DNA of 64,000 nucleotides, taken from the IMG/VR virus record IMGVR_UViG_3300042562_001169. One strand, written 5' to 3'. This document shows positions 3,088-58,940 of the stretch, piece after piece (the first letter of the stretch is position 1; the number at the start of each line of letters is the position of its first letter). The notes beneath the pieces are model-generated. The model had not been told where the DNA came from. It ran no database searches and was given only the letters and a program-made list of their open reading frames with translations. Source of the DNA: a virus. Taxonomy: Duplodnaviria; Heunggongvirae; Uroviricota; Caudoviricetes. A program made the translations under genes and the position numbers.

Positions 3088-3633
3088 ATGGGAAAATTTG
3101 AAAGTTGGTTGCAAAATTTAATTGAAAAAGAAGGATTTGACGAGGCTAAGTCAATGTTGGGTTTAACCACAATAGAATTAATTCAGAAAAGTGATTGTCA
3201 AATAGATTTTGAGATGGCAAATTATATTCTTGATTATTTATTTAGGGAAAAACTATTTCCTTGGAAATATAAAAAATGTCAATTAAGTTATGATGGGTTT
3301 AGTGGTGTAGTTAATTGGGACTGTGATTGGAGTGGTGATTTTTATAATGATTATAATGATGAAACAACATCTAGTATGGCGACACCATTTTGGGATGGTT
3401 ATGGTAATATTCCCGTTGACACTGAATTATATAAGGCGGTGGATTCAAATAATAATGGGATTTTATTAGGACCTGATGATTTGGATAATAGTCAATCTTA
3501 CACTTCTATTGAGTGGAATAAAAAATTTGATAATCTTGCCTCATACAGTATGTGGATAAGAAGATTTTACTTACCTAACGTTTATGAAGCAATCTCACAA
3601 CATTTGGATAATTATCGTAATTACGAAGATTAA
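3088..3633 (+). CDS. hypothetical protein (181 aa)
   Basis: ORF preceded by an atatttatataaat motif. Confidence 0.5.
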   Translation: MGKFESWLQNLIEKEGFDEAKSMLGLTTIELIQKSDCQIDFEMANYILDYLFREKLFPWKYKKCQLSYDGFSGVVNWDCDWSGDFYNDYNDETTSSMATPFWDGYGNIPVDTELYKAVDSNNNGILLGPDDLDNSQSYTSIEWNKKFDNLASYSMWIRRFYLPNVYEAISQHLDNYRNYED

Positions 3634-4448
3634 ATTAAAATTCTCTCGTCTGTTTTCTTTAGATATAAATCTTTTGTGTCTTTAGTTACATATAATAATA
3701 CGTCACCATTGTCATATTCTGTGTAATCATCAACAATTTCCTCAGACATACCCAACAATATTGTTTGGGAATTAAACCCAAAATTTTTAGCATCTTCTCC
3801 ATCTAATTGTTCGTCAGGTTTTGCTTTGAAGAAATAATCTTTCCAACGACCACTCCAAGATATATAATCTAAATATTGAATCTCAACTTGTTCATCACTA
3901 TATATATTTCCTGTTGCGTCACAATTTGAACAATTTACGTCTCCATCGCCACCACAATAATTGCAAGATTCTTCTCCACTACCATTACATCTTCCACAAG
4001 TCATTCTTCCGGAACCTTCACACATATCACATTCTTCACCGGCATCTTCATCCATACCTGAACCACCACAATAGTCACAATCTTCTTCACCATTACCATC
4101 GCAACGATTACATTCTGTTTCACCTGTTCCATCACAATAATCACAAGGTTCGCGTCCGTTATGACAATCAGGACAATCAACTTCAGGTTCGGTATTGTAG
4201 ATTTCAATTAACTCAACGGAATACATATTGGTTTCAATTCTGTCATAAGCTTCATCAATGTCTTGTTCCTTATTATTAATAGGAATTAAGAAACTATAAA
4301 AAATAACATCTTCAGGTGACATTCTATCTAATAATGGTTTGAAGTGTTTATCATTCCATAAAGATTGGTATACGGAGTTAGGTGATGAGTAGTCATCAAA
4401 GTAGTTTGCCGTTTTCTTAACTAATGAAAGTAATTTGTGTTTTTCCAT
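3630..4448 (-). CDS. Cys-rich protein with 8 tandem CxxCxGxG motifs (DnaJ-type zinc-finger-like repeats)
   Basis: CPDCHNG..CDYCDGTG..CNRCDGNG..CDYCGGSG..CDMCEGSG..CGRCNGSG..CNYCGGDG..CSNCDATG read directly from the translation. Confidence 0.6.
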   Translation of the reverse strand: MEKHKLLSLVKKTANYFDDYSSPNSVYQSLWNDKHFKPLLDRMSPEDVIFYSFLIPINNKEQDIDEAYDRIETNMYSVELIEIYNTEPEVDCPDCHNGREPCDYCDGTGETECNRCDGNGEEDCDYCGGSGMDEDAGEECDMCEGSGRMTCGRCNGSGEESCNYCGGDGDVNCSNCDATGNIYSDEQVEIQYLDYISWSGRWKDYFFKAKPDEQLDGEDAKNFGFNSQTILLGMSEEIVDDYTEYDNGDVLLYVTKDTKDLYLKKTDERILI

Positions 4449-4479
4449 AATATTTTAGATTACAAATATATTTATAAAT

Positions 4480-11213: not shown

Positions 11214-11272
11214 AATAATGTTTTACTATAAATATCGTAACCATTATTTGTTTTTGTTATATTTATAGAGGT

Positions 11273-12865
11273 ATGAAATTATTAGAAAGTATAAAACAAA
11301 TTATTACTGAGGCTTCAAAGAAAAAAATCTTAATGGATAAGATTGGTTTTAATGAGGATAATGCTGACCTATTAGATAAATTGTGTGGTCCGTTATCGGT
11401 TTGGATGGCAAAAAAAATGATGGAGTTCCAACAATATAGTAGTGGAAGGTTGGGTAATCAAGTAAAAACGGGTTCTGAATTAATAGACCAAATGAATAAC
11501 AATGGTGTTTTAAGAATGAAACAGAGTGGTATCCAATCTATTATGGATTGGGTTCGGGTTGGTTTAAACGGTAATTTGGGCGAATATAAAGATTTACCTT
11601 TTGTTGACTTGGTTTTACAGTCAAAAGAATGGCACGATAATTTGGAAATTGGACAGGGTGATATTAATTATAAAGAACAAAACCCAACTATATTAGATTT
11701 CACTGATGAAAATGGAAATGGGTTTTATTGGGCTGATTTGAATACAAAAAACTCATCAGAAGAATGTAATAGAATGGGACATTGTGGAAGAAGTTCTTAT
11801 GGATATCTTTATTCATTAAGACAAGTAATTCCGATTAACAACAAATATAAATTAAACAAATCAGTTCTAACTGCGGCAATTGGTGAGGATGGTATTATGT
11901 ATCAGTTGAAGGGTGTTAAGAACTCAAAACCAAAAGATGAATACCATCAATACATTCAACCGTTATTCTATGTGTTAGGTGGTGAAGGTGAAGAAGATGA
12001 TTATCTAATTCAAGGTTTTGGAACGGAATACGCATCTGAACAGGATTTTAAATTGTCTGACTTACCGGAACAAACAATCAAAGAATTGTATCAAAATAGA
12101 CCGGAGTTGTTCTCGTCAAGACCTATGCAACGATTGTTAGATAAGATGGGTATTATTGAAATGGAACCATTACCAACAGGATTCTCATTAGAAATTAAAC
12201 CTGAGGATTTTGATGATTATATTGATGGTGGAACTTATAATACATATACCAATAGAACAACCGGAAAACAAACAAGAACAAGTATTTTTGTTGAAATAAT
12301 GGCTGGTGACGCTTGGGATTTGTGGAATCAAGACGGTTACGAAGATTTTGGTAGTTACTTCCAATATACAGTAGACAAACCAACCGAAGAAAGATTGTGG
12401 GATATTGTTAGAAAAATGACAGAAAGAGATGGTGTTGAATTAGATGAGGATTTAGATTTAGAAGATTCTATTAAACAAGTGGATGATGATTGGGAAATAA
12501 GAAATGCTATTGGTGGTGCAATAAATGACGCTGACGCAAATGATTATGTTGATTACTTACAAAAACAAATTGAATCGGCGTTAGAATTCTATGGTAATGT
12601 ATATGAATTTAATGATACCGGAGCCAAAATCCAAGTTGATTTAGCTAATTTGGTTGATATTGATGAGGGTTGGGTTGATGAAATATTTGAAAATCATATG
12701 AATAGGGATGGTAAGTATGATTTAGAAGGAATATTTAATGAATTATTATCTGAAAGTCATATTGATAAACCTGACTTTGACCCCGATGACAGATGGTATC
12801 CATCACCTGATGATAGTGTCGTAAATGAAAATGTTAATTATAGATTAGATGATATAAGTATATGA
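11273..12865 (+). CDS. hypothetical protein, 530 aa, acidic C-terminal half
   Basis: Long ORF. A ttatatttatag motif lies 6 nt upstream of the ATG. Confidence 0.6.
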   Translation: MKLLESIKQIITEASKKKILMDKIGFNEDNADLLDKLCGPLSVWMAKKMMEFQQYSSGRLGNQVKTGSELIDQMNNNGVLRMKQSGIQSIMDWVRVGLNGNLGEYKDLPFVDLVLQSKEWHDNLEIGQGDINYKEQNPTILDFTDENGNGFYWADLNTKNSSEECNRMGHCGRSSYGYLYSLRQVIPINNKYKLNKSVLTAAIGEDGIMYQLKGVKNSKPKDEYHQYIQPLFYVLGGEGEEDDYLIQGFGTEYASEQDFKLSDLPEQTIKELYQNRPELFSSRPMQRLLDKMGIIEMEPLPTGFSLEIKPEDFDDYIDGGTYNTYTNRTTGKQTRTSIFVEIMAGDAWDLWNQDGYEDFGSYFQYTVDKPTEERLWDIVRKMTERDGVELDEDLDLEDSIKQVDDDWEIRNAIGGAINDADANDYVDYLQKQIESALEFYGNVYEFNDTGAKIQVDLANLVDIDEGWVDEIFENHMNRDGKYDLEGIFNELLSESHIDKPDFDPDDRWYPSPDDSVVNENVNYRLDDISI

Positions 12866-16183: not shown

Positions 16184-16364
16184 AAATAAGGAATAAAAGA
16201 TTATGTCGAAAAAGAGGGGCGGAAACCCAAATACGTCGAAAGATGGTGACAAGGAATGTTAGGCAATCCTAAAACCTAACTGCTAAGAATCAAGTGTTAT
16301 GATTCGGGTTAACAACCTCAACTTATGGTGAAACAAAAAAAGGTTCCTTCGGGAACCTTTTTAA
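16184..16364 (+). ncRNA. candidate small RNA or micro-peptide transcript (about 180 nt) between a host-type promoter and a strong terminator
   Basis: Internal hairpins (gggcggaaaccc; gttaggcaatcctaaaacctaac). Only a 19-codon ORF is present (MSKKRGGNPNTSKDGDKEC). Ends at the hairpin aaaaaaaggttccttcgggaacctttttaat. Confidence 0.3.
16334..16364. terminator. bidirectional rho-independent terminator
   Basis: aggttccttcgggaacct flanked by an A-run and a T-run. Confidence 0.7.
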
Positions 16365-16846
16365 TTGGGCATATTTCTTGTAAACACATCACCATATCTA
16401 TCAACAATAATTGTTGGGGATTCGTTAACTCTAAATTTAAGATGGTTAGGGTGTTGAATTGATGTATTTATAATTATTTTAATCCTATTATGTGTTCCAT
16501 TTAACCACATATGATAATCAATACCCGCTACATTGTCGATAACATTAATTGAACATCTAACAACACATTCTTGCATTATTCTTCTTGCTGATTGTATTAT
16601 TGTTGATTCTATATCCATTATAGAATCGTTAATTTCATCTGGGTCAACTCTTTGAAATGAACTACTAGAACCGACAGACTCCTGAGAATGGGGGTTTTTA
16701 TACAAGTTAATTAAACTATTTTCACTTCTATGTAATCTTCTAATAAAATCTTGTTCACCTAAGATATTATTTACAACAATTTCATATATTAAAATTGGTT
16801 TTGGTTCTGTATATTCCCTTAATATCTGTCTAATTAATTCCTTCAT
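16361..16846 (-). CDS. family paralog, ILREE-type leader (MKELIRQILREYTEP...)
   Basis: The internal Met at 16846 is preceded (on the minus strand) by atatatttattact. The track start at 16885 lies further upstream. Confidence 0.5.
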   Translation of the reverse strand: MKELIRQILREYTEPKPILIYEIVVNNILGEQDFIRRLHRSENSLINLYKNPHSQESVGSSSSFQRVDPDEINDSIMDIESTIIQSARRIMQECVVRCSINVIDNVAGIDYHMWLNGTHNRIKIIINTSIQHPNHLKFRVNESPTIIVDRYGDVFTRNMPN

Positions 16847-17216
16847 AGTAATAAATATATATTTTTTCAATAAATGCTTGTGCAATTAAAGTAAATGTGT
16901 TACTTTTGTCCTATCAAACTGAAACAATAACCTTAACACATACAGAAACTATGAAAACAATTACCTTCACAATGCAAGAGATATGGGCGGCTTCTCGTCC
17001 ATCTGTTCAAAAAAGTAAAAAAGCTTACAACAGAAAACCAAAACACAATAAAGATAAGTACTAATATCAAACCCATCTCCGGATGGGTTTTTTATTTAAC
17101 GAGAGTAAAAAGTTAAAATAATTACCTTCGTTTTATTTTGGGGAGTAAAAAATTGATAAAATTACCCTCGTAATATAAACGAGAGTAATTTTTACCTTCT
17201 TGTTATATTTATAGAT

Positions 17217-20674: not shown

Positions 20675-21268
20675 ATGAAAGAGTTAATTAAAAAAATATT
20701 ACGAGAGGAAGTTCAGAAGAGATTTACAAAATCTAATCAAAGTTTTGAGCGTCTTATTATTAAACAGATGGAGTCTTTAATATCCGAAACAAATAGAGTT
20801 GTTGTCCCACCTGAAGAGAATTATGGAAACTTTAATGAGGAGTGGTGTAAAGGTGATAAAATTATTATGCAGGCAAGATACTTTTTCAGTAGTGAAGATA
20901 GTGATGAAGAAAAGTTTTTTGGTGGTGATTTATATGTTAATAAAGAAGAAATTGATTTTTTATCTCAAATGTTACAGGTTAGAAAACCCTATTTACTTAA
21001 TGTAATTACCGAATGGTATGATGAGAAATACGCTACCAAGTTTGGTCAAGAAACCGGACACCCGGAATTGGAGATTGATGAGACTCACGAAACGGATAGT
21101 GACCATAAATGTTATAAAATGATTAATACTTCAAACCTAAGTAGAGAATATATGATTGATTATATTGATACAAATACATTATATAAACTTAGTGAATTGG
21201 AAAAACTACCTGATGATGAGTTAGAAAGAAAATACCGAAGTGTTTATAATATCCAATTAAATAAGTAA
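20675..21268 (+). CDS. family paralog, ILREE-type leader (MKELIKKILREEVQKR)
   Basis: Tandem array member. Confidence 0.55.
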   Translation: MKELIKKILREEVQKRFTKSNQSFERLIIKQMESLISETNRVVVPPEENYGNFNEEWCKGDKIIMQARYFFSSEDSDEEKFFGGDLYVNKEEIDFLSQMLQVRKPYLLNVITEWYDEKYATKFGQETGHPELEIDETHETDSDHKCYKMINTSNLSREYMIDYIDTNTLYKLSELEKLPDDELERKYRSVYNIQLNK

Positions 21269-23104: not shown

Positions 23105-23512
23105 ATGGACATACAGGAAAACGTATATAGAATTAAACAAATAATGACTGAAGGTAAGGACGCTTATGTCTCAAGAGCTCGTTCTGACCAAGAGTATGAG
23201 GAAGAATATCCAAAATGGAAAAAAACTATAATTAAACTTTTAGAGATGGAAATAGATTCAAAGGCAGAAATTAACAATGGTAAAATAATAGTTTTGCTTA
23301 ATGGGAAAAACCTTGACAAAAATCTAATTAAATATGATAAAATAAATGAAAGATTATGGTATGATTATTCCTTACAAGAAAATTTGGAAGGTTATATACC
23401 ATACGGTTATTTATCAAGACATTTTAAATACGGACTTCAGGACTTCTTCAAAAAACATTTCCCGGACTATGGTGTTAGAGAACTAACGGCTGCGAGTTTA
23501 GTAAGTTACTAA
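23105..23512 (+). CDS. family paralog, MNLNE-type leader variant (MDIQENVYRIKQIMTEGKD)
   Basis: gatatttatcact lies before the ATG. Confidence 0.5.
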   Translation: MDIQENVYRIKQIMTEGKDAYVSRARSDQEYEEEYPKWKKTIIKLLEMEIDSKAEINNGKIIVLLNGKNLDKNLIKYDKINERLWYDYSLQENLEGYIPYGYLSRHFKYGLQDFFKKHFPDYGVRELTAASLVSY

Positions 23513-24774: not shown

Positions 24775-24783
24775 AATTAAACG

Positions 24784-24810
24784 AGGGAAAGTAATTTTTC
24801 CCTTTTTTTT
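24784..24810 (+). terminator. rho-independent terminator
   Basis: gagggaaagtaatttttccc followed by tttttttt. Confidence 0.6.
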
Positions 24811-24822
24811 ATATTTATAGTT

Positions 24823-25593
24823 ATGAACTTACACGAAGATATACAAAGAATAAGACAAATGATGATTTCTGAGGAGATGGTCCAATCAGATGCGTGGAAA
24901 TCAATCAAAAAAACATTAGACATTCTTAAAAAGAAAAAGAAAGTTTTAATCTTAAGTTGTTCCAATAGATATAATTGGGATGAAAAAAACCTTGACATAC
25001 CAAAATCAAAGATGATTGCAATGTATCTTAACGATGAGTTAAAAGACTCAGTGTTAATTGATGTTTCCGAACTTAACATTGTTCCTTGTGAGGGGAATGT
25101 ATCAAGAAAAGACGGGAACAGTTGTGGATTACTTAAATCTATGCTCAAAGATAAGAAAAAGAATCCATCCGGAGACCATAGATGTTGGGCAAGTTATAAC
25201 AATCCAAAGGATGAGTTATGGAAGATATCCAAAGAGTTATTTGAGTCAGATGCTGTTGTATTCTTTAGTTCAATTAGATGGGGACAAACCAATATGTTCT
25301 ATCAGAATTTAATTGAGCGATTGACTTGGATTGAGAACAGACACGCAACATTGGGGGAATCAAATCTTGTTAAAGATATTGAGACAGGATTCATTTGTGT
25401 TGGACAGAATTGGAATGGTGAGAACGTAACTGAAACACAGAAAGAAGTTCATAAGTTTTATGGATTCAAACCAAACAATGACTTGTATTGGAATTGGCAA
25501 TATACCAAAGATGTGAATGATGAAACTCAAAAATCATATAAGGATTCACACAAGAAGTTTATTAAAGATACAAAATTACCTGAAGATAAATAA
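24823..25593 (+). CDS. flavodoxin-like-fold NAD(P)H oxidoreductase-like protein carrying the MNLHEDIQRIRQMM family leader
   Basis: KKVLILSCSNRYNWDEKNL and ESDAVVFFSSIRWGQTNMFYQNLIERL resemble the FMN-reductase/Flavodoxin_2 family motifs. Confidence 0.45.
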   Translation: MNLHEDIQRIRQMMISEEMVQSDAWKSIKKTLDILKKKKKVLILSCSNRYNWDEKNLDIPKSKMIAMYLNDELKDSVLIDVSELNIVPCEGNVSRKDGNSCGLLKSMLKDKKKNPSGDHRCWASYNNPKDELWKISKELFESDAVVFFSSIRWGQTNMFYQNLIERLTWIENRHATLGESNLVKDIETGFICVGQNWNGENVTETQKEVHKFYGFKPNNDLYWNWQYTKDVNDETQKSYKDSHKKFIKDTKLPEDK

Positions 25594-26318
25594 TGAACTT
25601 ACGACATGACATAAAAAGAATATTAAGGGAAGAAACAAATAAAGATTTAACTTCGGTAATAGAAATGTTATTAGAGGGATTTGTTAATGACCACAAAGAC
25701 ATTCTTTGTAAGGTTGAGGTTAAGCACCCGGACAAGAGAACCAAACTACCACATTCGGATAATGTTTATGAGAATTACAGAGCAACATTTTATTTAATTG
25801 CTCATAAAGGTGGGTATTCAACAACAAGAGCTCAATTGATGGATAACGTAATGAATGAGGTGTGGGATTTGGTATATAATTATACCGGACAGAAATTAGA
25901 TATGTTTACCAAACACGTAAAGAGTTGTGACGATATTATAAAAGAGAGTAAAGATAATAGTATTTCTGATATGATAAAAACTTTGGGGGTTTCTGATGCC
26001 ATTAAGTATTTTGGGAATTACTACACAATTGAGCCATACTTAAAAGTGGTTGATAAAGTTAATTTTATTAAAGAAAAAGTTAGAGAATTAAGTGATGATG
26101 GTAGTGGTGTTGGTTTACACGAGATAAATGAAGAGCCACTTCATTATAGTGATGAAGATGGGGAGGAACATCAAATAGAATGGTTAGGACTAACAAGTGT
26201 AGACATTAGTGTATATGAAGATGAGTATAGTGGTCATTTAAGGGACTATTATTCTAAGTATGAAAGTTTACCTGTGCAAATAATTGAGGAATTGGTTGAG
26301 ATATTATTAAACCACTAA
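25593..26318 (+). CDS. family paralog (MNLRHDIKRILREETNKD)
   Basis: Tandem array member, coupled start. Confidence 0.5.
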   Translation: MNLRHDIKRILREETNKDLTSVIEMLLEGFVNDHKDILCKVEVKHPDKRTKLPHSDNVYENYRATFYLIAHKGGYSTTRAQLMDNVMNEVWDLVYNYTGQKLDMFTKHVKSCDDIIKESKDNSISDMIKTLGVSDAIKYFGNYYTIEPYLKVVDKVNFIKEKVRELSDDGSGVGLHEINEEPLHYSDEDGEEHQIEWLGLTSVDISVYEDEYSGHLRDYYSKYESLPVQIIEELVEILLNH

Positions 26319-26321
26319 GAT

Positions 26322-26867
26322 ATGAATTTAAACGAGAACATACATAGAATCCATCAGATGATGGGTGTAGTGAGTGAAGATGTGAGTCCAAACACTGTTA
26401 AAACAATAATTGATATATTAGGTATTAGAGATGCTATTAATTATTATGGGGGTTATGAGAACCTTAAAAAATATCTAAATTTGGTTTATGATAGGAAGAG
26501 TGGTAAATGGGTGCACGCGAGTACATTACAGACCAATCCTGTTGATTTAAATACTATTACATCAAGAGAAGATAAGATTGAGTTTATTAAGGATACAATT
26601 TTTACTCAATACTACGGATTGTTTACTTATGGAGATGAAGGTTGGGACGAGAGTGATTATTCTGTGTTAGAGAGTACTGAAACTTATGAAAAGGTAGCAT
26701 TTACATACTATACTGATGAATTAAATGTAACAACATTTTATAGAAATGAGAATGGTGAGTTTTCATCTCAAACCGAAAATGATGACCATAGTGAAACAAT
26801 TAAATATGAGGATTTACCGGATGATATGATTAATAACGCATTTGAGTTTATAGCTAAAAAAATTTAA
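26322..26867 (+). CDS. family paralog (MNLNENIHRIHQMMGVVSED)
   Basis: Tandem array member. Confidence 0.5.
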   Translation: MNLNENIHRIHQMMGVVSEDVSPNTVKTIIDILGIRDAINYYGGYENLKKYLNLVYDRKSGKWVHASTLQTNPVDLNTITSREDKIEFIKDTIFTQYYGLFTYGDEGWDESDYSVLESTETYEKVAFTYYTDELNVTTFYRNENGEFSSQTENDDHSETIKYEDLPDDMINNAFEFIAKKI

Positions 26868-26869
26868 TT

Positions 26870-27328
26870 ATGAATTTAAACGAGAACATACATAGAATCC
26901 ATCAGATGATGGGGATTATCAATGAGAATAAAGTGGTTGATGTTGTTCAAGAAATGGGGTTATACCAAGCCACTCGTTATTTTGGGGGTTATGACAAAGT
27001 TACAAAATTAATGGGGGATTATGTGTTCTCAAATGAAGAAATGATTGATTTTATTAGAGAGGCTATAAAACATTTAGCTTACAAACATAATTCAACCGGG
27101 ATATCTACGTATGAATTAAATATGAATTCTATTCCATATGGTTCTCCTGATGAGGAGTTACATCAAATTGAGTATTTCAACCCGGAGTATGTTACCATAG
27201 ATGTTTATGGTGGTGAAGAGTATGAAAGACACAGAAGTAGTTATACTGAACGATATGAGGATTTGGATGATAATACATTAGATGAGGTTTTCCTGTTTAT
27301 GGTTGACGCAGTAGAACACTACAAATAG
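26870..27328 (+). CDS. family paralog (MNLNENIHRIHQMMGIINEN)
   Basis: The first 15 residues are identical to those of the previous ORF. Confidence 0.5.
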   Translation: MNLNENIHRIHQMMGIINENKVVDVVQEMGLYQATRYFGGYDKVTKLMGDYVFSNEEMIDFIREAIKHLAYKHNSTGISTYELNMNSIPYGSPDEELHQIEYFNPEYVTIDVYGGEEYERHRSSYTERYEDLDDNTLDEVFLFMVDAVEHYK

Positions 27329-27330
27329 AT

Positions 27331-27744
27331 ATGAGTTTACAAGATACCATAAGAAGAATATTAAGAGAGGAATCCTATTCTCCGGCGAGTGATGAATATA
27401 CTCCGGGGGAATATATTGTTCATAAATCAAATCCTATATGGAGAGACAACATAGAACTTACCGGATTACAAACATCGGTGGGGGAATGTTATCAATCACA
27501 CGTCGGTGACGATGAAGAATGTAAACCATCCATATTTGCAACAGATTCATTAGATGAAAAAGATATGTTTGATTCCACATATGACGATGACATTTGGATT
27601 ATCAATACGGAATGTGCCGGGGTTACTTGGTATAAAGACAAACATTTTGATGGTGGATATTACAAACATCATATAGTTACATTCGAGAACATATCACCGG
27701 ACTGTCTTAGATTATTATATAAAGGAACGGGGAAAAGTTATTAA
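27331..27744 (+). CDS. family paralog (MSLQDTIRRILREESYSPA)
   Basis: Tandem array member. Confidence 0.5.
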   Translation: MSLQDTIRRILREESYSPASDEYTPGEYIVHKSNPIWRDNIELTGLQTSVGECYQSHVGDDEECKPSIFATDSLDEKDMFDSTYDDDIWIINTECAGVTWYKDKHFDGGYYKHHIVTFENISPDCLRLLYKGTGKSY

Positions 27745-27812
27745 TGTATATTATAATATACAAAACACAATAAAAACGGGGATAATGTATATTATAGTAT
27801 ACATTTAACACT

Positions 27813-35011: not shown

Positions 35012-35437
35012 ATGAAAAAGTTATTGTTATTATTTGCTCTGTTGTTGATGATTGGGTGTAATATGCCTGTTTATAAAACATATCACACAGATAAAATTTA
35101 TTTAAGACAATTGGTGAATCGTGATGTTACGGAAACTCATACTTCGGGTTCGTTCTTTTTGATTGCCGGTTCGGTTAGTTCGGATAGTGAAACCCAAACT
35201 GTTATAAAAGTTATGGGTGAGGTTAATGGTGAATATCGTTTTATGCAATTTGATTTTACTAAAGCAAGAATCAAAATTGATAATAAGGTCACCACCCCAT
35301 ATATTGTTTTGAATTATGTGGACGATGAAAATAAATCAGTTGATTACTTATTGGAATACGATTACAACGTAAAGTCCGTTACCATTATTTGTCCGGAACA
35401 ATATTTACCTGAGAAATTATTACCAATTCAAATATAG
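35012..35437 (+). CDS. small lipoprotein (MKKLLLLFALLLMIGC...)
   Basis: The internal ATG at 35012 gives a classic signal peptide with Cys lipobox. The track start at 34937 lies inside the terminator. Confidence 0.5.
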   Translation: MKKLLLLFALLLMIGCNMPVYKTYHTDKIYLRQLVNRDVTETHTSGSFFLIAGSVSSDSETQTVIKVMGEVNGEYRFMQFDFTKARIKIDNKVTTPYIVLNYVDDENKSVDYLLEYDYNVKSVTIICPEQYLPEKLLPIQI

Positions 35438-37652: not shown

Positions 37653-37680
37653 CCGATATATTTATATTAAAACAAATTAT

Positions 37681-44335: not shown

Positions 44336-45769
44336 TCAAATTTGTTTTCCATATTCAATAACGGTTTCAGTTTTTTCTTCTTGACGGTGACCGCCAACAT
44401 AAGTTCCACATACTTTATTACCATTATCAATCACGTCCTCAATTTGAGTCTCCCATCTAATATATAGAAGACTTGTTGATGGGTCGGTATAATTTCCTGA
44501 CATAGTTTTTTTTACACCGTTTTTAATCACACCATTAATTCTTCCTTTGTGGTGATATACATCTTCATAGGTTTCTTTAACACCTTCACTAATAACGTCC
44601 TTTATTAAATCTGTTGGGACATCCCAATCACATTCAATGGTGTCCGTAATACCTTTGTTAATAATCTTATCAATTATGTTTTCACCAACATATTGACGTG
44701 GGGTGGAACTTCTCACACCATCTCTAACGACAAGATGTGATTCTAAAATAAGTTCTCTACCGCTAGTATCTAAAATCAGAAGAGCATTCTTTTTTTGTTT
44801 TGTTTCTTTTACACCATTTTTAAGTGCGTCTTCCATTTTATTATCAAAAAATTTCATCACATCAACGTGACTAGTTTCTTTAACACCAATATCAATCACT
44901 TTATAAGCATCAACCCTAAGTTTTGACATATGATATTTAGTTTCCTTCACACCCTTATCAATTACTTCTTCACATAAAAATTGGAATTTATCTCCCGATT
45001 TGGTTTCTTTCACACCTTCTTTAATGACACCATTAATCCAACTTTGATTTTCGTACTCACTATATTGAGTGTCTCTCACACCATTTTGAATAACATCTTT
45101 AACGTCACCTCTAAATCCTTTATACTCGTAAATTTCTTTCACCCCATTTTGAATGATGTCGTTAATATCTCCAAGTTTTTTATCTGAACTTCCGTTATCG
45201 GTATCTTTAACAAGGAATGGTCGATGGAAATGGAGGGGGTCAGTTTTCTTCACACCATTTTCAAGAGTACCCTCAACTGATAAGGTTCTTTTATCGCCCC
45301 AATAATCGGTGTTCTTCACCCCATTTTGAATGATATCGTCAACCCCAAGAAGAGTACGTCGTAATGTGCTATTAGTTTCTTTCACCCCATTCTCAATGGT
45401 ATCGTCAACGGACCAACACGTTTTCATATGAGCCATCTTAGTTTTATTTACACCATTTTCAAGAGTATCTTCAAATTGTTGTTTTCTATCCCGGGCATCT
45501 CTAAAGAGTGTAACATAAGTTAACTCTTTATTTATAATATTGTCTTCCACCCATTTTGTGATGAGGTGTTGATTCTGAACGCAATCCAACGAAGCGTAAG
45601 CAAAAACACTTTTAAAAAAGTTGTAATTATACCACAGAGTTTTATTCTCAGTTAATTCAATCACCCATTGTTTAGTCTCAGTAAAGATTAACCAAGTGGA
45701 ATCATTGTGGGTGTAGGTATCCACACCTTCGGTAAATTCGTTGATTAGTTTATGTATAATTTTTTCCAT
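44336..45769 (-). CDS. 477-aa protein with about 15 degenerate repeats of the motif [IV]-x-N-G-V-K-[EK]-T
   Basis: Repeats read directly (ENGVNKT, IENGVKET, IQNGVKNT, LENGVKKT, IQNGVKEI, IQNGVRDT, IKEGVKET, IDKGVKET, IDIGVKET, LKNGVKET ...). Coupled to the acyltransferase. Confidence 0.6.
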   Translation of the reverse strand: MEKIIHKLINEFTEGVDTYTHNDSTWLIFTETKQWVIELTENKTLWYNYNFFKSVFAYASLDCVQNQHLITKWVEDNIINKELTYVTLFRDARDRKQQFEDTLENGVNKTKMAHMKTCWSVDDTIENGVKETNSTLRRTLLGVDDIIQNGVKNTDYWGDKRTLSVEGTLENGVKKTDPLHFHRPFLVKDTDNGSSDKKLGDINDIIQNGVKEIYEYKGFRGDVKDVIQNGVRDTQYSEYENQSWINGVIKEGVKETKSGDKFQFLCEEVIDKGVKETKYHMSKLRVDAYKVIDIGVKETSHVDVMKFFDNKMEDALKNGVKETKQKKNALLILDTSGRELILESHLVVRDGVRSSTPRQYVGENIIDKIINKGITDTIECDWDVPTDLIKDVISEGVKETYEDVYHHKGRINGVIKNGVKKTMSGNYTDPSTSLLYIRWETQIEDVIDNGNKVCGTYVGGHRQEEKTETVIEYGKQI

Positions 45770-47775: not shown

Positions 47776-47796
47776 TTTACACAGATATTTATAGTT

Positions 47797-49267: not shown

Positions 49268-50002
49268 TTATCGTTTTAAGATTTCTTTAGAGTAAAATTC
49301 ATCAAACCCAACCATCATTTCTGTCATAGATTTGTTTGTCTCTAATCCAACGATGTTATCAATTAAACCAAACTTTTTCGCCTCATCTGAGTTGAACCAT
49401 TTGTCATTTCTTGATGACTCATACATCTCGTCAAATGTTTTCCCACAATTCTCCGCCAAGATTTTGAATAACATATAGTTATACTTCTCCGCCTCCAATT
49501 GGTTGATACGAGTGTCCTGAACATTTCCTTGTGTTCCGTGAGATACCATATGTGTCATAATTTTTGAGAAGATTAATGAACTTCTTTTTCCTTTGGCTCC
49601 TGACGATACTAATACGGAACCCATAGACGCACACATCCCAACATTTAATGTTGCAACATCCGGTTTGATGTAGTTCATAGTATCTCGGATTCCAAGACCT
49701 GACAATACGGAACCTCCCGGAGTGTCAAGATACATACTGATATCTTTTTTATCTGTGGTTTCCAAGAAGATAAGTTGAGCTTGTATGATAGATGCCATCT
49801 GACTCTCAACCGGTCCGGAAACCCAAATAATTCTGTCCATCATAAGTCGGGAGAAAATATCAAGTTGAGTTGCTCTCATCTCTCTTTCTTCCAAAATGTA
49901 TGGAGTAACACTCTCGATGTGTTTTTGGTAGTAATCCAAATTAAGTCCTGAAATACCTCTGTCGCTCATCGCGAACTTTTGAAACTCTTTTCCGTAATTC
50001 AT
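49268..50002 (-). CDS. clpP: ATP-dependent Clp protease proteolytic subunit ClpP
   Basis: Canonical blocks: LDTPGGSV, catalytic Ser in GMCASMGS and catalytic His in MTHMVSHG. Full-length match to bacterial ClpP. Confidence 0.85.
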   Translation of the reverse strand: MNYGKEFQKFAMSDRGISGLNLDYYQKHIESVTPYILEEREMRATQLDIFSRLMMDRIIWVSGPVESQMASIIQAQLIFLETTDKKDISMYLDTPGGSVLSGLGIRDTMNYIKPDVATLNVGMCASMGSVLVSSGAKGKRSSLIFSKIMTHMVSHGTQGNVQDTRINQLEAEKYNYMLFKILAENCGKTFDEMYESSRNDKWFNSDEAKKFGLIDNIVGLETNKSMTEMMVGFDEFYSKEILKR

Positions 50003-58096: not shown

Positions 58097-58125
58097 CCGA
58101 CTGATGTCGGTTTTGTTGTTTTAAG
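58097..58125. terminator. bidirectional terminator hairpin (accgactgatgtcggttttgtt)
   Basis: Sits between convergent genes. The stem resembles the hairpin at 52453-52478 (ccgacattgatgtcgg). Confidence 0.6.
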
Positions 58126-58888
58126 CCAAATTCAAATTAGCACTTGTCATAACTGAAGCTACTTTATCTTGATTATGTAAATTTGTACTTTTTCTATCGG
58201 AAATTGCTTGTTTAATTAATTCTTCATCAGATTTACCTGATTTAATACCTTCATCTAAACTTTTTGCAAATTTCTTAAAATATCCCGGACCATTCCAGCA
58301 AGCGTATGAAAAGTGCATTAATAAACTATCATTAGCCTCAACACGTTTTTTAAGTTCAGGATTTGTAAAATAGTTTTTTGAATTAGTGTCATATTGATTT
58401 TTCATTATTTTAGCGGCTAAAGTTTTTAATGTATCCTCTAGTTGACCCCCTCTATAATAATGTTTCCAAGTTTTACAAAACTGTTGCATACCTAAGTCAG
58501 TTTTTTCTTTATCAATAATTCTAAAAAATTCCTTACCCTCAGGTGAACTTTCAATACTACCATTGTATCTGTCAAGACCAAACATAGTTTCTGTTGATAC
58601 ACCCATTCCTTTAGTTGAATGTCCACATTTAGGATTCCAGTAACCACCTTCAAATTCGTCAATCACTTTTTTGGTTACGTTTTCCCATTTAGAATCAACA
58701 GACCCTGAACTTAAATCAAATTTTCCAATTGCCGATTTTATTTTATTTCCAAAATCACCGGTTTTAAGCATATTAACAATTGTATCTGCCAAACCTTTAA
58801 GTGCGTCACCGGCTCCTTGTTCGTTAATATTATATAATGATTTAATATTGTTTTTTTCTTCTTCGGTTATTAATAATTTTTTTGACAT
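58121..58888 (-). CDS. putative peptidoglycan hydrolase, GH108-like N-terminal motif (FEGGYWNP...STKGMGVS)
   Basis: Resembles the GH108 signature EGGYxNDPxDxGGxTxxGI. Weak, motif-level only. Confidence 0.35.
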   Translation of the reverse strand: MSKKLLITEEEKNNIKSLYNINEQGAGDALKGLADTIVNMLKTGDFGNKIKSAIGKFDLSSGSVDSKWENVTKKVIDEFEGGYWNPKCGHSTKGMGVSTETMFGLDRYNGSIESSPEGKEFFRIIDKEKTDLGMQQFCKTWKHYYRGGQLEDTLKTLAAKIMKNQYDTNSKNYFTNPELKKRVEANDSLLMHFSYACWNGPGYFKKFAKSLDEGIKSGKSDEELIKQAISDRKSTNLHNQDKVASVMTSANLNLA

Positions 58889-58940
58889 ATCAAATTTTCT
58901 TTTATTATAAATACTAACATATTTTAATATATTTATAAAT

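Follow-up and report, generated by a model that had tools for sequence, protein, structure and literature searches.

In phage T4, the internal proteins IPI-III together with Alt, gp24, gp67 and gp68 carry N-terminal targeting sequences of 10-20 residues; these attach to the scaffold core, and gp21 cleaves them off behind a glutamate (PMC5694885, PMC3012670). The internal proteins of T-even phages have the leader alone in common; they are encoded by hotspot genes, are injected and block restriction systems (PMC12373910). Giant phages also package many different proteins in large heads and cleave after Glu with a T4-related prohead protease, and in phage SPN3US the first 15 residues are the same in the paralogs gp53 and gp54, whose bodies are only 34% identical, a pattern that has been read as a targeting sequence (PMC5694885). 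Here, we analyzed a 64,000-nt stretch of DNA from a virus of the Caudoviricetes (IMG/VR record IMGVR_UViG_3300042562_001169; the whole stretch is called the window), in which five consecutive genes at 24,823-27,744 open with one class of N-terminal peptide, hereafter the leader. The leader is a virus-specific, modular, N-terminal and helical element, and comparison of sequences makes it an evenly balanced possibility that it acts as a capsid-targeting propeptide like those of T4 and labels the members of a large, rapidly changing protein set for packaging and injection.

A leader class shared by five coupled genes

The array genes 24823, 25593, 26322, 26870 and 27331, named by their start positions, form one tightly coupled operon, with a 1-nt overlap at the first junction followed by spacers of 3, 2 and 2 nt. 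All five open reading frames (ORFs) are present as described in an earlier note made from this DNA alone, and their products open with M[NS]LxxxIxRI and then xQMM or LREE. The two starts reported there to have identical first 15 residues are those of 26322 and 26870, which both begin MNLNENIHRIHQMMG. A 45-nt perfect DNA repeat (26321-26365 = 26869-26913), 44 nt of which are coding, spans the start codons of these two neighbors, and their bodies are ~30% identical. A small palindrome, CCATCAGATGATGG, lies within both identical leaders at 26351-26364 and 26899-26912 (codons IHQMMG).

The array proteins are 137-256 amino acids (aa) long and essentially single-body. One body family (GxxDAIxYxGGY ... 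QIEYF ... YEDLDDNTLDEVF) is common to 26322, 26870 and the C-terminal half of 25593, and further bodies, unrelated to this family, are found in 27331 and in 23105, a leader gene outside the array. In 24823, the leader is an N-terminal extension relative to cellular flavin mononucleotide (FMN) reductases, which lack it. Searches of ten leader proteins against Pfam, PHROGs and NCBIfam returned nothing significant, and the body of 26870 gave no detectable fold match.

To exclude chance, the leaders were compared with composition-preserving shuffles (n=20,000). The mean pairwise BLOSUM62 score of the four non-identical leaders was 22.8, against -8.7 +/- 3.7 for the shuffles, none of which reached 22.8, so that the N-termini align better than chance at equal composition. 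The same score was reached by eight of 20,000 sets of N-termini picked at random from the window, and these probably draw on leader genes or on an MKIIITE class of starts. A six-frame scan of the window with a loose leader motif gave 13 matches, 10 of which are the gene starts in question, at an offset of 4-6 from the Met or of 15-16 after an LTE segment. Similarity by chance is excluded by these results. The related starts that had been listed at 23105, 20675, 16846 (minus strand), 37681 and 38178 are all in place, and the last two do join an LTE-type start to this class (Table 1). A further match, absent from that list, is a 530-aa gene at 11273, whose metagenomic homolog P0247 carries a full MNLQENILRIKEVMG leader plus a second, internal one.

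Another start class was observed in the window. About 20 genes begin MK[IVL][IVL]ITE[NS][KR] (476, 4480, 20150, 20344, 21268, 21648, 21950, 22276, 28482(-), 28784(-), 36311, 36648, 37013, 37332, 41186, 42320, 46893 and 47797 among them) and have no Pfam match. Their first ~17 residues align by eye with the LTE class, (I/L)TE(S/G)xLxxLIxxhLxx, and contain a hydrophobic-T-E that resembles the T4 gp23 cleavage site FLTE/A (a slash marks the cut here and below). Many share a C-terminal W...(Y/F)(N/G)L.V and are therefore also true paralogs. A 255-aa gene at 58121-58888 (minus strand) has an N-terminal variant, MSKKLLITEEEKNNIKSLY, with a promoter-like motif upstream and no PHROG match.

Modularity and distribution of the leader

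A search of 1.84 billion representative proteins with a profile of six window leaders matched 82 of them (E <= 1e-3). The matches lie at residue 1 in almost every case and have the consensus MNLQENIxRI(KQMMG or LREE). A degenerate DNA pattern for MNLQENIxRI identified at least 120 stretches in IMG/VR, many on 200-320-kb contigs. The pattern matched twice in 596 Gb of cellular genomes: one match is a chance 23-codon ORF and the other a mis-binned 3.3-kb phage fragment with this same array, leaving one real match. This fragment (L137, CAZYEM010000367.1, 3283 bp) was binned in a metagenome-assembled genome labelled 'uncultured Bacteroides sp.', which hints weakly at a Bacteroidota host, unless it is a binning artefact. 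Among isolate phages, neither 20 kb of the window (megablast) nor 26322 and 24823 (tblastn) had a match, and 11273 had one weak tblastn match. The leader is not described in the searched literature: its strings retrieved no paper, and it goes unmentioned in the Far-T4 paper.

In 1.3 Mb of collected loci, 257 unique leader ORFs were found, and their bodies fall into 84 clusters. Apart from the short N-terminal peptide, the proteins of different clusters are unrelated. Pfam matches among these tagged ORFs included ART-PolyVal (three ORFs), Acb1 (directed against the cyclic-oligonucleotide-based antiphage signaling system, CBASS), DUF2237, Pterin_4a, Peptidase_M15_4/VanY, GNAT, several P-loop kinases and HD, with weak matches to NleE and an ADP-ribosyl-exotoxin. 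The array locus is flanked by a PTH2-like gene and a nitroreductase, and syntenic metagenomic contigs hold 2 to 6 different leader genes at this position, including a P-loop kinase. The leader family is much larger than the earlier note had proposed, and that note assigned it no function.

The leader flavors behave as one family. Orthologous bodies that are 65-91% identical carry different flavors in different phages: the body of 25593 (MNLRHDIKRILREE) is 88% identical to that of its ortholog in L004 (MKLIRTIKSIVNEE), and its orthologs in L002, L004 and L010 have an MKLI(G/R)TIK leader instead. Likewise, 26870 has a 67% identical body in L002 behind MKLIETIKSIINEN, the L002 ortholog of 27331 has the leader MKLIETIKRIINEE, and P0096 places the LREE flavor on the body of 26870. 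Orthologs of 24823 mostly begin MNLQENIQRIREMMISEE, some have the LTE-like MIKLTDLINEMMLQEE, and a few apparently have no leader. The leader evolves by swapping between flavors. The proposal of one modular family therefore holds, whereas its restriction to two flavors does not, since MKLIxTIKxI and MIKLTDLIxEMM are further ones.

These data bear on the explanation that the leader is only the first helix of each protein's own fold, a relic of one ancestral protein whose bodies have diverged, with no common function. Three of the five array bodies are true paralogs, and in the structural model of 24823 the leader helix continues to residue 20 with moderate confidence, both of which speak for this explanation. 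Nevertheless, it is very improbable given the unrelated recognizable bodies (FMN reductase, P-loop kinases, Pterin_4a, GNAT, ART, 2H/Acb1, M15 peptidase and HD), cellular relatives that have no leader, and orthologs that swap flavors or, in a few cases, apparently lack the leader.

A detached amphipathic helix with internal copies

The helix proposed for the N-terminus is present in the AlphaFold model of 26870 (mean predicted local distance difference test score, pLDDT, 87.8), in which residues 3-14 form a low-confidence helix (pLDDT ~55) and the confident body begins near residue 19. The leader thus appears in the model as separate from the fold of this protein. Its hydrophobic residues occupy positions 3, 7, 10, 13/14 and 17, and its hydrophobic moment is 0.46-0.70 compared with 0.28 +/- 0.13 for other N-termini, which bears out the amphipathic character that had been suggested. 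Sec, Tat and lipoprotein signals have a hydrophobic h-region of ~10-15 residues, a twin-arginine motif or a lipobox. Such a signal peptide was ruled out for the leader by the mean hydrophobicity of residues 2-15 (-0.1 to -0.6) and by charged residues throughout, and the real lipoprotein signals of the window look different, for example MKKLLLLFALLLMIGC at 35012. The leader is therefore an amphipathic, docking-type helix and not a secretion signal.

Although the leader stands at gene starts, as described initially, it is not confined to them. Internal copies are found in multi-domain proteins, namely about 15 of the representatives and 15 ORFs of the loci. The Met is replaced in these copies (for example IPLKESIRRILREE and TNLQESIRRILREG), and a copy stands between a Gly/Ser/Pro-rich linker and each downstream domain. 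In P0279, a ParB-like domain is fused to the body of 27331 via such an internal leader. P0233, P0247, P0252 and P0279, as well as proteins of L061, L088, L030 and others, have a leader before each domain, HD, HExxH and ParB-like modules included. Since these copies lack the Met, they speak against a leader function tied only to translation start, which was ruled out as the sole explanation, and their position between domains fits a docking or cleavage element rather than a start-codon effect.

Codon bias and possible recombination

The leader also has a nucleotide-level signature. Codons 2-7 were analyzed in 249-260 leader ORFs (window and L001-L133). AAC is used in 80% of cases at N2 and 71% at N6 compared with 25% in bodies, ATA in 96% at I7 compared with 44%, and CTA in 44% at L3 compared with 9%; the third-base C of codon 6 is retained despite amino-acid changes. 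In the internal copies, ATA is used at I7 in 15/15 and the rare codons TCC and AGG are frequent. General start-proximal codon bias was rejected as the cause, being far too weak. In L004, two genes are identical over 30 nt upstream plus 14 codons, and in L002 flavors are homogenized among neighboring genes. Perfect repeats, runs of one flavor among neighbors and codon bias together suggest that, besides selection on the peptide, the leader often mediates recombination or is under an additional constraint at the nucleotide level.

The codon bias, the repeat in L004 and the homogenized flavors, with the 45-nt repeat between neighbors of ~30% body identity, speak for the leader as mainly a nucleic-acid module, that is, a 5' gene-cassette handle for recombination and shuffling of accessory genes and/or an element for efficient translation start, with the peptide as a by-product. 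However, flavors of differing nucleotide sequence retain the same helical pattern, R9 is encoded by AGA, AGG and CGA and I10 by all three codons, and synonymous identity among orthologs of 24823 is equal in leader and body (0.65 and 0.62). The internal copies are conserved as peptides without a start codon, the general start-proximal bias is far weaker than that of the leader, and recombination via the leader is compatible with, and expected beside, a targeting function. We therefore consider it quite unlikely that the nucleic acid is the main object of selection.

Leader-bearing phages with T4-type head genes

A search of the collected loci with T4 proteins identified homologs of gp17, gp18, gp19, gp20, gp21 and gp23. 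Leader-bearing contigs, L113, L105 and L123 among others, matched Pfam Portal_T4 (gp20) at 249 bits, the prohead protease family Peptidase_S77 at 74.7 bits (cut-off 27) and Gp23 at 242 bits, with the gene order portal, two small genes, protease, a coiled-coil scaffold-like gene and capsid gene. Many of these contigs have leader genes at a distance of a few kb from gp23, among them orthologs of 24823 with 79-84% identity to it.

The capsid protein belongs to the T4 superfamily and its nearest isolates are Microcystis phage Mel-JY01, Flavobacterium phage immuto and Rhodothermus phage RM378. RM378 is the only cultured 'Far-T4' phage (PMC7198788). Immuto was considered as a relative and set aside: it is the closest match of the window's thymidylate synthase ThyA (63% aa) and has a partial match to the major capsid protein, yet it is a phage of another kind, and no leaders are present in its first 50 kb, which were used as a negative control.

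The window contains 17 copies of the motif RTATTTATAD, where 6.7 are expected, and almost all of them lie 3-20 nt ahead of gene starts, a spacing that suggests mRNAs with very short or absent 5' leaders. In related contigs, RTATTTATA is found ahead of the genes for gp17, gp20, gp21 and the scaffold as well, and this promoter-like motif common to the array and head genes supports a role of the leader in capsid targeting.

Capsid targeting as a proposed function, and other possible destinations

If the leader is a capsid-targeting propeptide, the short amphipathic helix, N-terminal or before each fused domain, would dock the protein on the scaffolding core during prohead assembly. The T4-type prohead protease would then cleave it off behind the Glu of a hydrophobic-x-Glu motif, the candidate sites being LQE at residues 3-5 and LRE, INE or ISE at the leader end. 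Mature proteins would remain in the head and enter the host along with the DNA, and the five-gene array would be a fast-changing hotspot of internal or ejected proteins. Docking, cleavage, packaging and injection are each put forward here by analogy with the systems above.

Several lines of evidence argue for this assignment. The anatomy is that of T4, in that a short N-terminal peptide is the sole common element of otherwise unrelated proteins encoded in variable hotspots, and the T4-type head genes (Gp23, Portal_T4 and Peptidase_S77) in leader-bearing contigs place it in the same phage superfamily. Every leader flavor has a hydrophobic-x-Glu at its end, a candidate protease site that resembles those of T4, and almost all members of the 26870 family have E19. 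The T4 genome gives MKTYQEFIAE/A for ipII and ipIII, MAKINELLRE/S for gp24, MELITELFDE for Alt, MEGLIEAIKSN for gp67 and FLTE65/A for gp23. The pair 26322 and 26870 matches the SPN3US gp53/gp54 precedent of paralogs with identical first ~15 residues and diverged bodies, one case among the propeptides of head and ejection proteins in giant phages (phiKZ, 201phi2-1 and SPN3US; PMC5694885). Finally, the detachment of the leader from the fold of 26870 and its restriction to viruses (at least 120 IMG/VR matches) favor capsid targeting, and the effector-like cargo (ART-PolyVal, the anti-CBASS Acb1, GNAT, kinases, HD and M15 peptidase) favors injected proteins.

The leader also differs from its precedents. 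It is longer than the T4 sequences (14-20 aa compared with ~10), has no significant hidden Markov model (HMM) similarity to them, and comes in several interchangeable flavors on at least 84 body families that include enzymes and are mostly acidic; copies also stand between the domains of fused proteins. The giant-phage propeptides are mostly >100 residues long with A/S/G-x-E sites, and no homology between them and the leader was detected.

A number of observations weigh against capsid targeting. Hydrophobic-x-Glu is a low-information motif, and [LI]xE is not depleted in tagged bodies (observed/expected 1.15 compared with 1.18). The leader HMM gave no enrichment among T4 N-termini, ranking gp67 11th, the internal proteins 14-15th and Alt 18th of 76. 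Consensus scoring gave only a weak, post hoc signal, with gp67 1st, gp24 4th, Alt 6th and the internal proteins 43-44th of 76 (Mann-Whitney p = 0.02-0.06). The tagged bodies are mostly acidic (median isoelectric point 5.3), in contrast to the T4 internal proteins, which are basic. There are no head genes within the window, so that the link to them rests on relatives, and the repertoire of 84 body clusters is very large and includes a metabolic-looking, cofactor-dependent enzyme. The position-specific codon bias, in addition, hints at a nucleotide-level or recombination factor outside the capsid-targeting model.

In another reading, the leader would dock or target proteins to a different shared partner: it may be a degron or adaptor tag for timed proteolysis by the ClpP of the phage, or recruit proteins to a phage hub or compartment or to a host complex. 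A detached amphipathic helix on many unrelated bodies is compatible with such a partner, as are acidic bodies without [LI]xE depletion and the many cargoes that are enzymes that would act in the cytoplasm. The window also encodes a true ClpP homolog at 49268-50002 (minus strand; CLP_protease, 177 bits; PHROG 'head maturation protease') with no head genes nearby, although phages of this lineage are already equipped with a prohead protease of the Peptidase_S77 family. However, no candidate receptor was identified, ClpP is tied to the leader only by sharing the window, and the negative mean hydrophobicity disfavors membrane insertion. In addition, the closest documented precedent for the same anatomy, in this very phage superfamily, is capsid targeting. 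A partner other than the capsid is therefore unlikely, although less so than the two explanations considered earlier.

Two further systems share features with the tagged proteins. Polyvalent proteins of phages and conjugative elements, reportedly described by Iyer et al. in 2017, are thought to be delivered with DNA. They are similar in that ART-PolyVal matches tagged ORFs and in the HD, HExxH and ParB-like modules with a leader before each domain. However, the window genes are small and single-domain and do not have the large multi-domain polyvalent architecture, which only some metagenomic relatives approach, and the leader itself is not a described polyvalent module. Encapsulin cargo-loading peptides are short, transferable and bring diverse enzymes into an HK97-fold shell. 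They are usually C-terminal, differ from the leader in sequence and belong to a cellular system in which no protease removes them.

Features of the window

The coordinates of the array, of the other leader genes and of the promoter-like motifs are given in Table 1. In the spacer right after the array, a 21-nt near-perfect direct repeat, TAATGTATATTATA(A/G)TATACA, is present at 27742-27762 and 27783-27803, each copy being palindromic. The phage DNA of the window has a G+C content of 31% and a dense arrangement of short ORFs, and Pfam identified only scattered accessory functions in its first half, namely DUF6915, Band_7, an NS-type endonuclease, GT2, a metallophosphatase, a MUG113 domain and a nitroreductase. 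Two repeat proteins were also observed. The gene at 44336-45769 (minus strand) encodes a 477-aa protein with ~20 degenerate repeats ending NGVKET/NGVKKT and no PHROG match, and that at 3630-4448 (minus strand) has a run of CxxCxGxG-type cysteine repeats (CPDCHNGREPCDYCDGTGETECNRCDGNGEEDCDYCGGSG...) that recalls the DnaJ zinc-finger region.

Table 1. Array, leader genes and promoter-like motifs in the 64,000-nt window.
Feature	Coordinates	Strand	Sequence	Remarks
Terminator-like hairpin	24783..24804	+	TTTTTTATAT (T-run)	9-bp stem, then T-run; closes the upstream unit just ahead of the array
Promoter-like motif	24810..24820	+	TATATTTATAG	Ends 3 nt ahead of the first ATG of the array
Gene 1	24823..25593	+	MNLHEDIQRIRQMM (ORF start); MNLHEDIQRIRQMMISEE (leader)	Leader is codons 1-18; flavodoxin-like FMN/quinone-reductase body
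Gene 2	25593..26318	+	MNLRHDIKRILREE	Two-part body, C-terminal half paralogous to genes 3 and 4
Gene 3	26322..26867	+	MNLNENIHRIHQMMGVVSE	GxxDAIxYxGGY-type body
Gene 4	26870..27328	+	MNLNENIHRIHQMMGIINE	Body paralogous to genes 2/3
Gene 5	27331..27744	+	MSLQDTIRRILREE	Unrelated body beginning YSPASDEYTPGEY
Leader gene outside the array	23105..23512	+	MDIQENVYRIKQIM	Ortholog within the array in L002, L004 and L137, with MNLQENIDRIK
Short-form leader gene	20675..21268	+	MKELIKKILREE	
Short-form leader gene	16361..16846	-	MKELIRQILREY	Promoter-like motif upstream
LTE segment and leader helix	37681..38172	+	MKKIVRLTEGELTNLIKRILKED	LTE, then IKRILKED
LTE segment and leader helix	38178..38639	+	MKKKIIKLTESDLKNIVMRIINEQ	LTE, then VMRIINEQ
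530-aa gene with further leader match	11273..12865	+	MKLLESIKQIITE	Not in the list of the earlier note
RTATTTATA sites	24810-24820, 11259-11268, 16850-16859(-), 17205-17214, 4468-4477, 37658-37667, 47785-47794, 58929-58938, others			

Implications

Should the leader prove to target proteins to the capsid, the proteins that abundant uncultured aquatic phages inject could be listed straight from sequence. Delimiting this set by experiment is very difficult; that of T4 is made up of anti-defence proteins. Many uncharacterized families would then become candidate counter-defence effectors beside the Acb1-like and ART-PolyVal proteins, and the leader would represent a natural cargo-loading system with interchangeable tags for phage-capsid engineering, as well as a model for leader cassettes that drive accessory-gene shuffling.

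A more far-reaching reading, which we regard as doubtful, is that the leader is a universal cargo tag and so defines, by sequence only, the full arsenal of proteins packaged and injected by large T4-superfamily phages (100-320 kb) that form a widespread, uncultured lineage and probably infect Bacteroidota. Such an arsenal would comprise dozens of families per genome and >80 overall, anti-CBASS, ADP-ribosyltransferase, kinase and redox enzymes among them, and would evolve by leader-cassette swaps and by fusing or splitting tagged modules. Alternatively, the tag may address a different, undescribed destination or a ClpP-based timer, which would be even more novel. Whatever its function, the near-complete absence of the leader from cellular genomes makes it a clean marker of this phage lineage.

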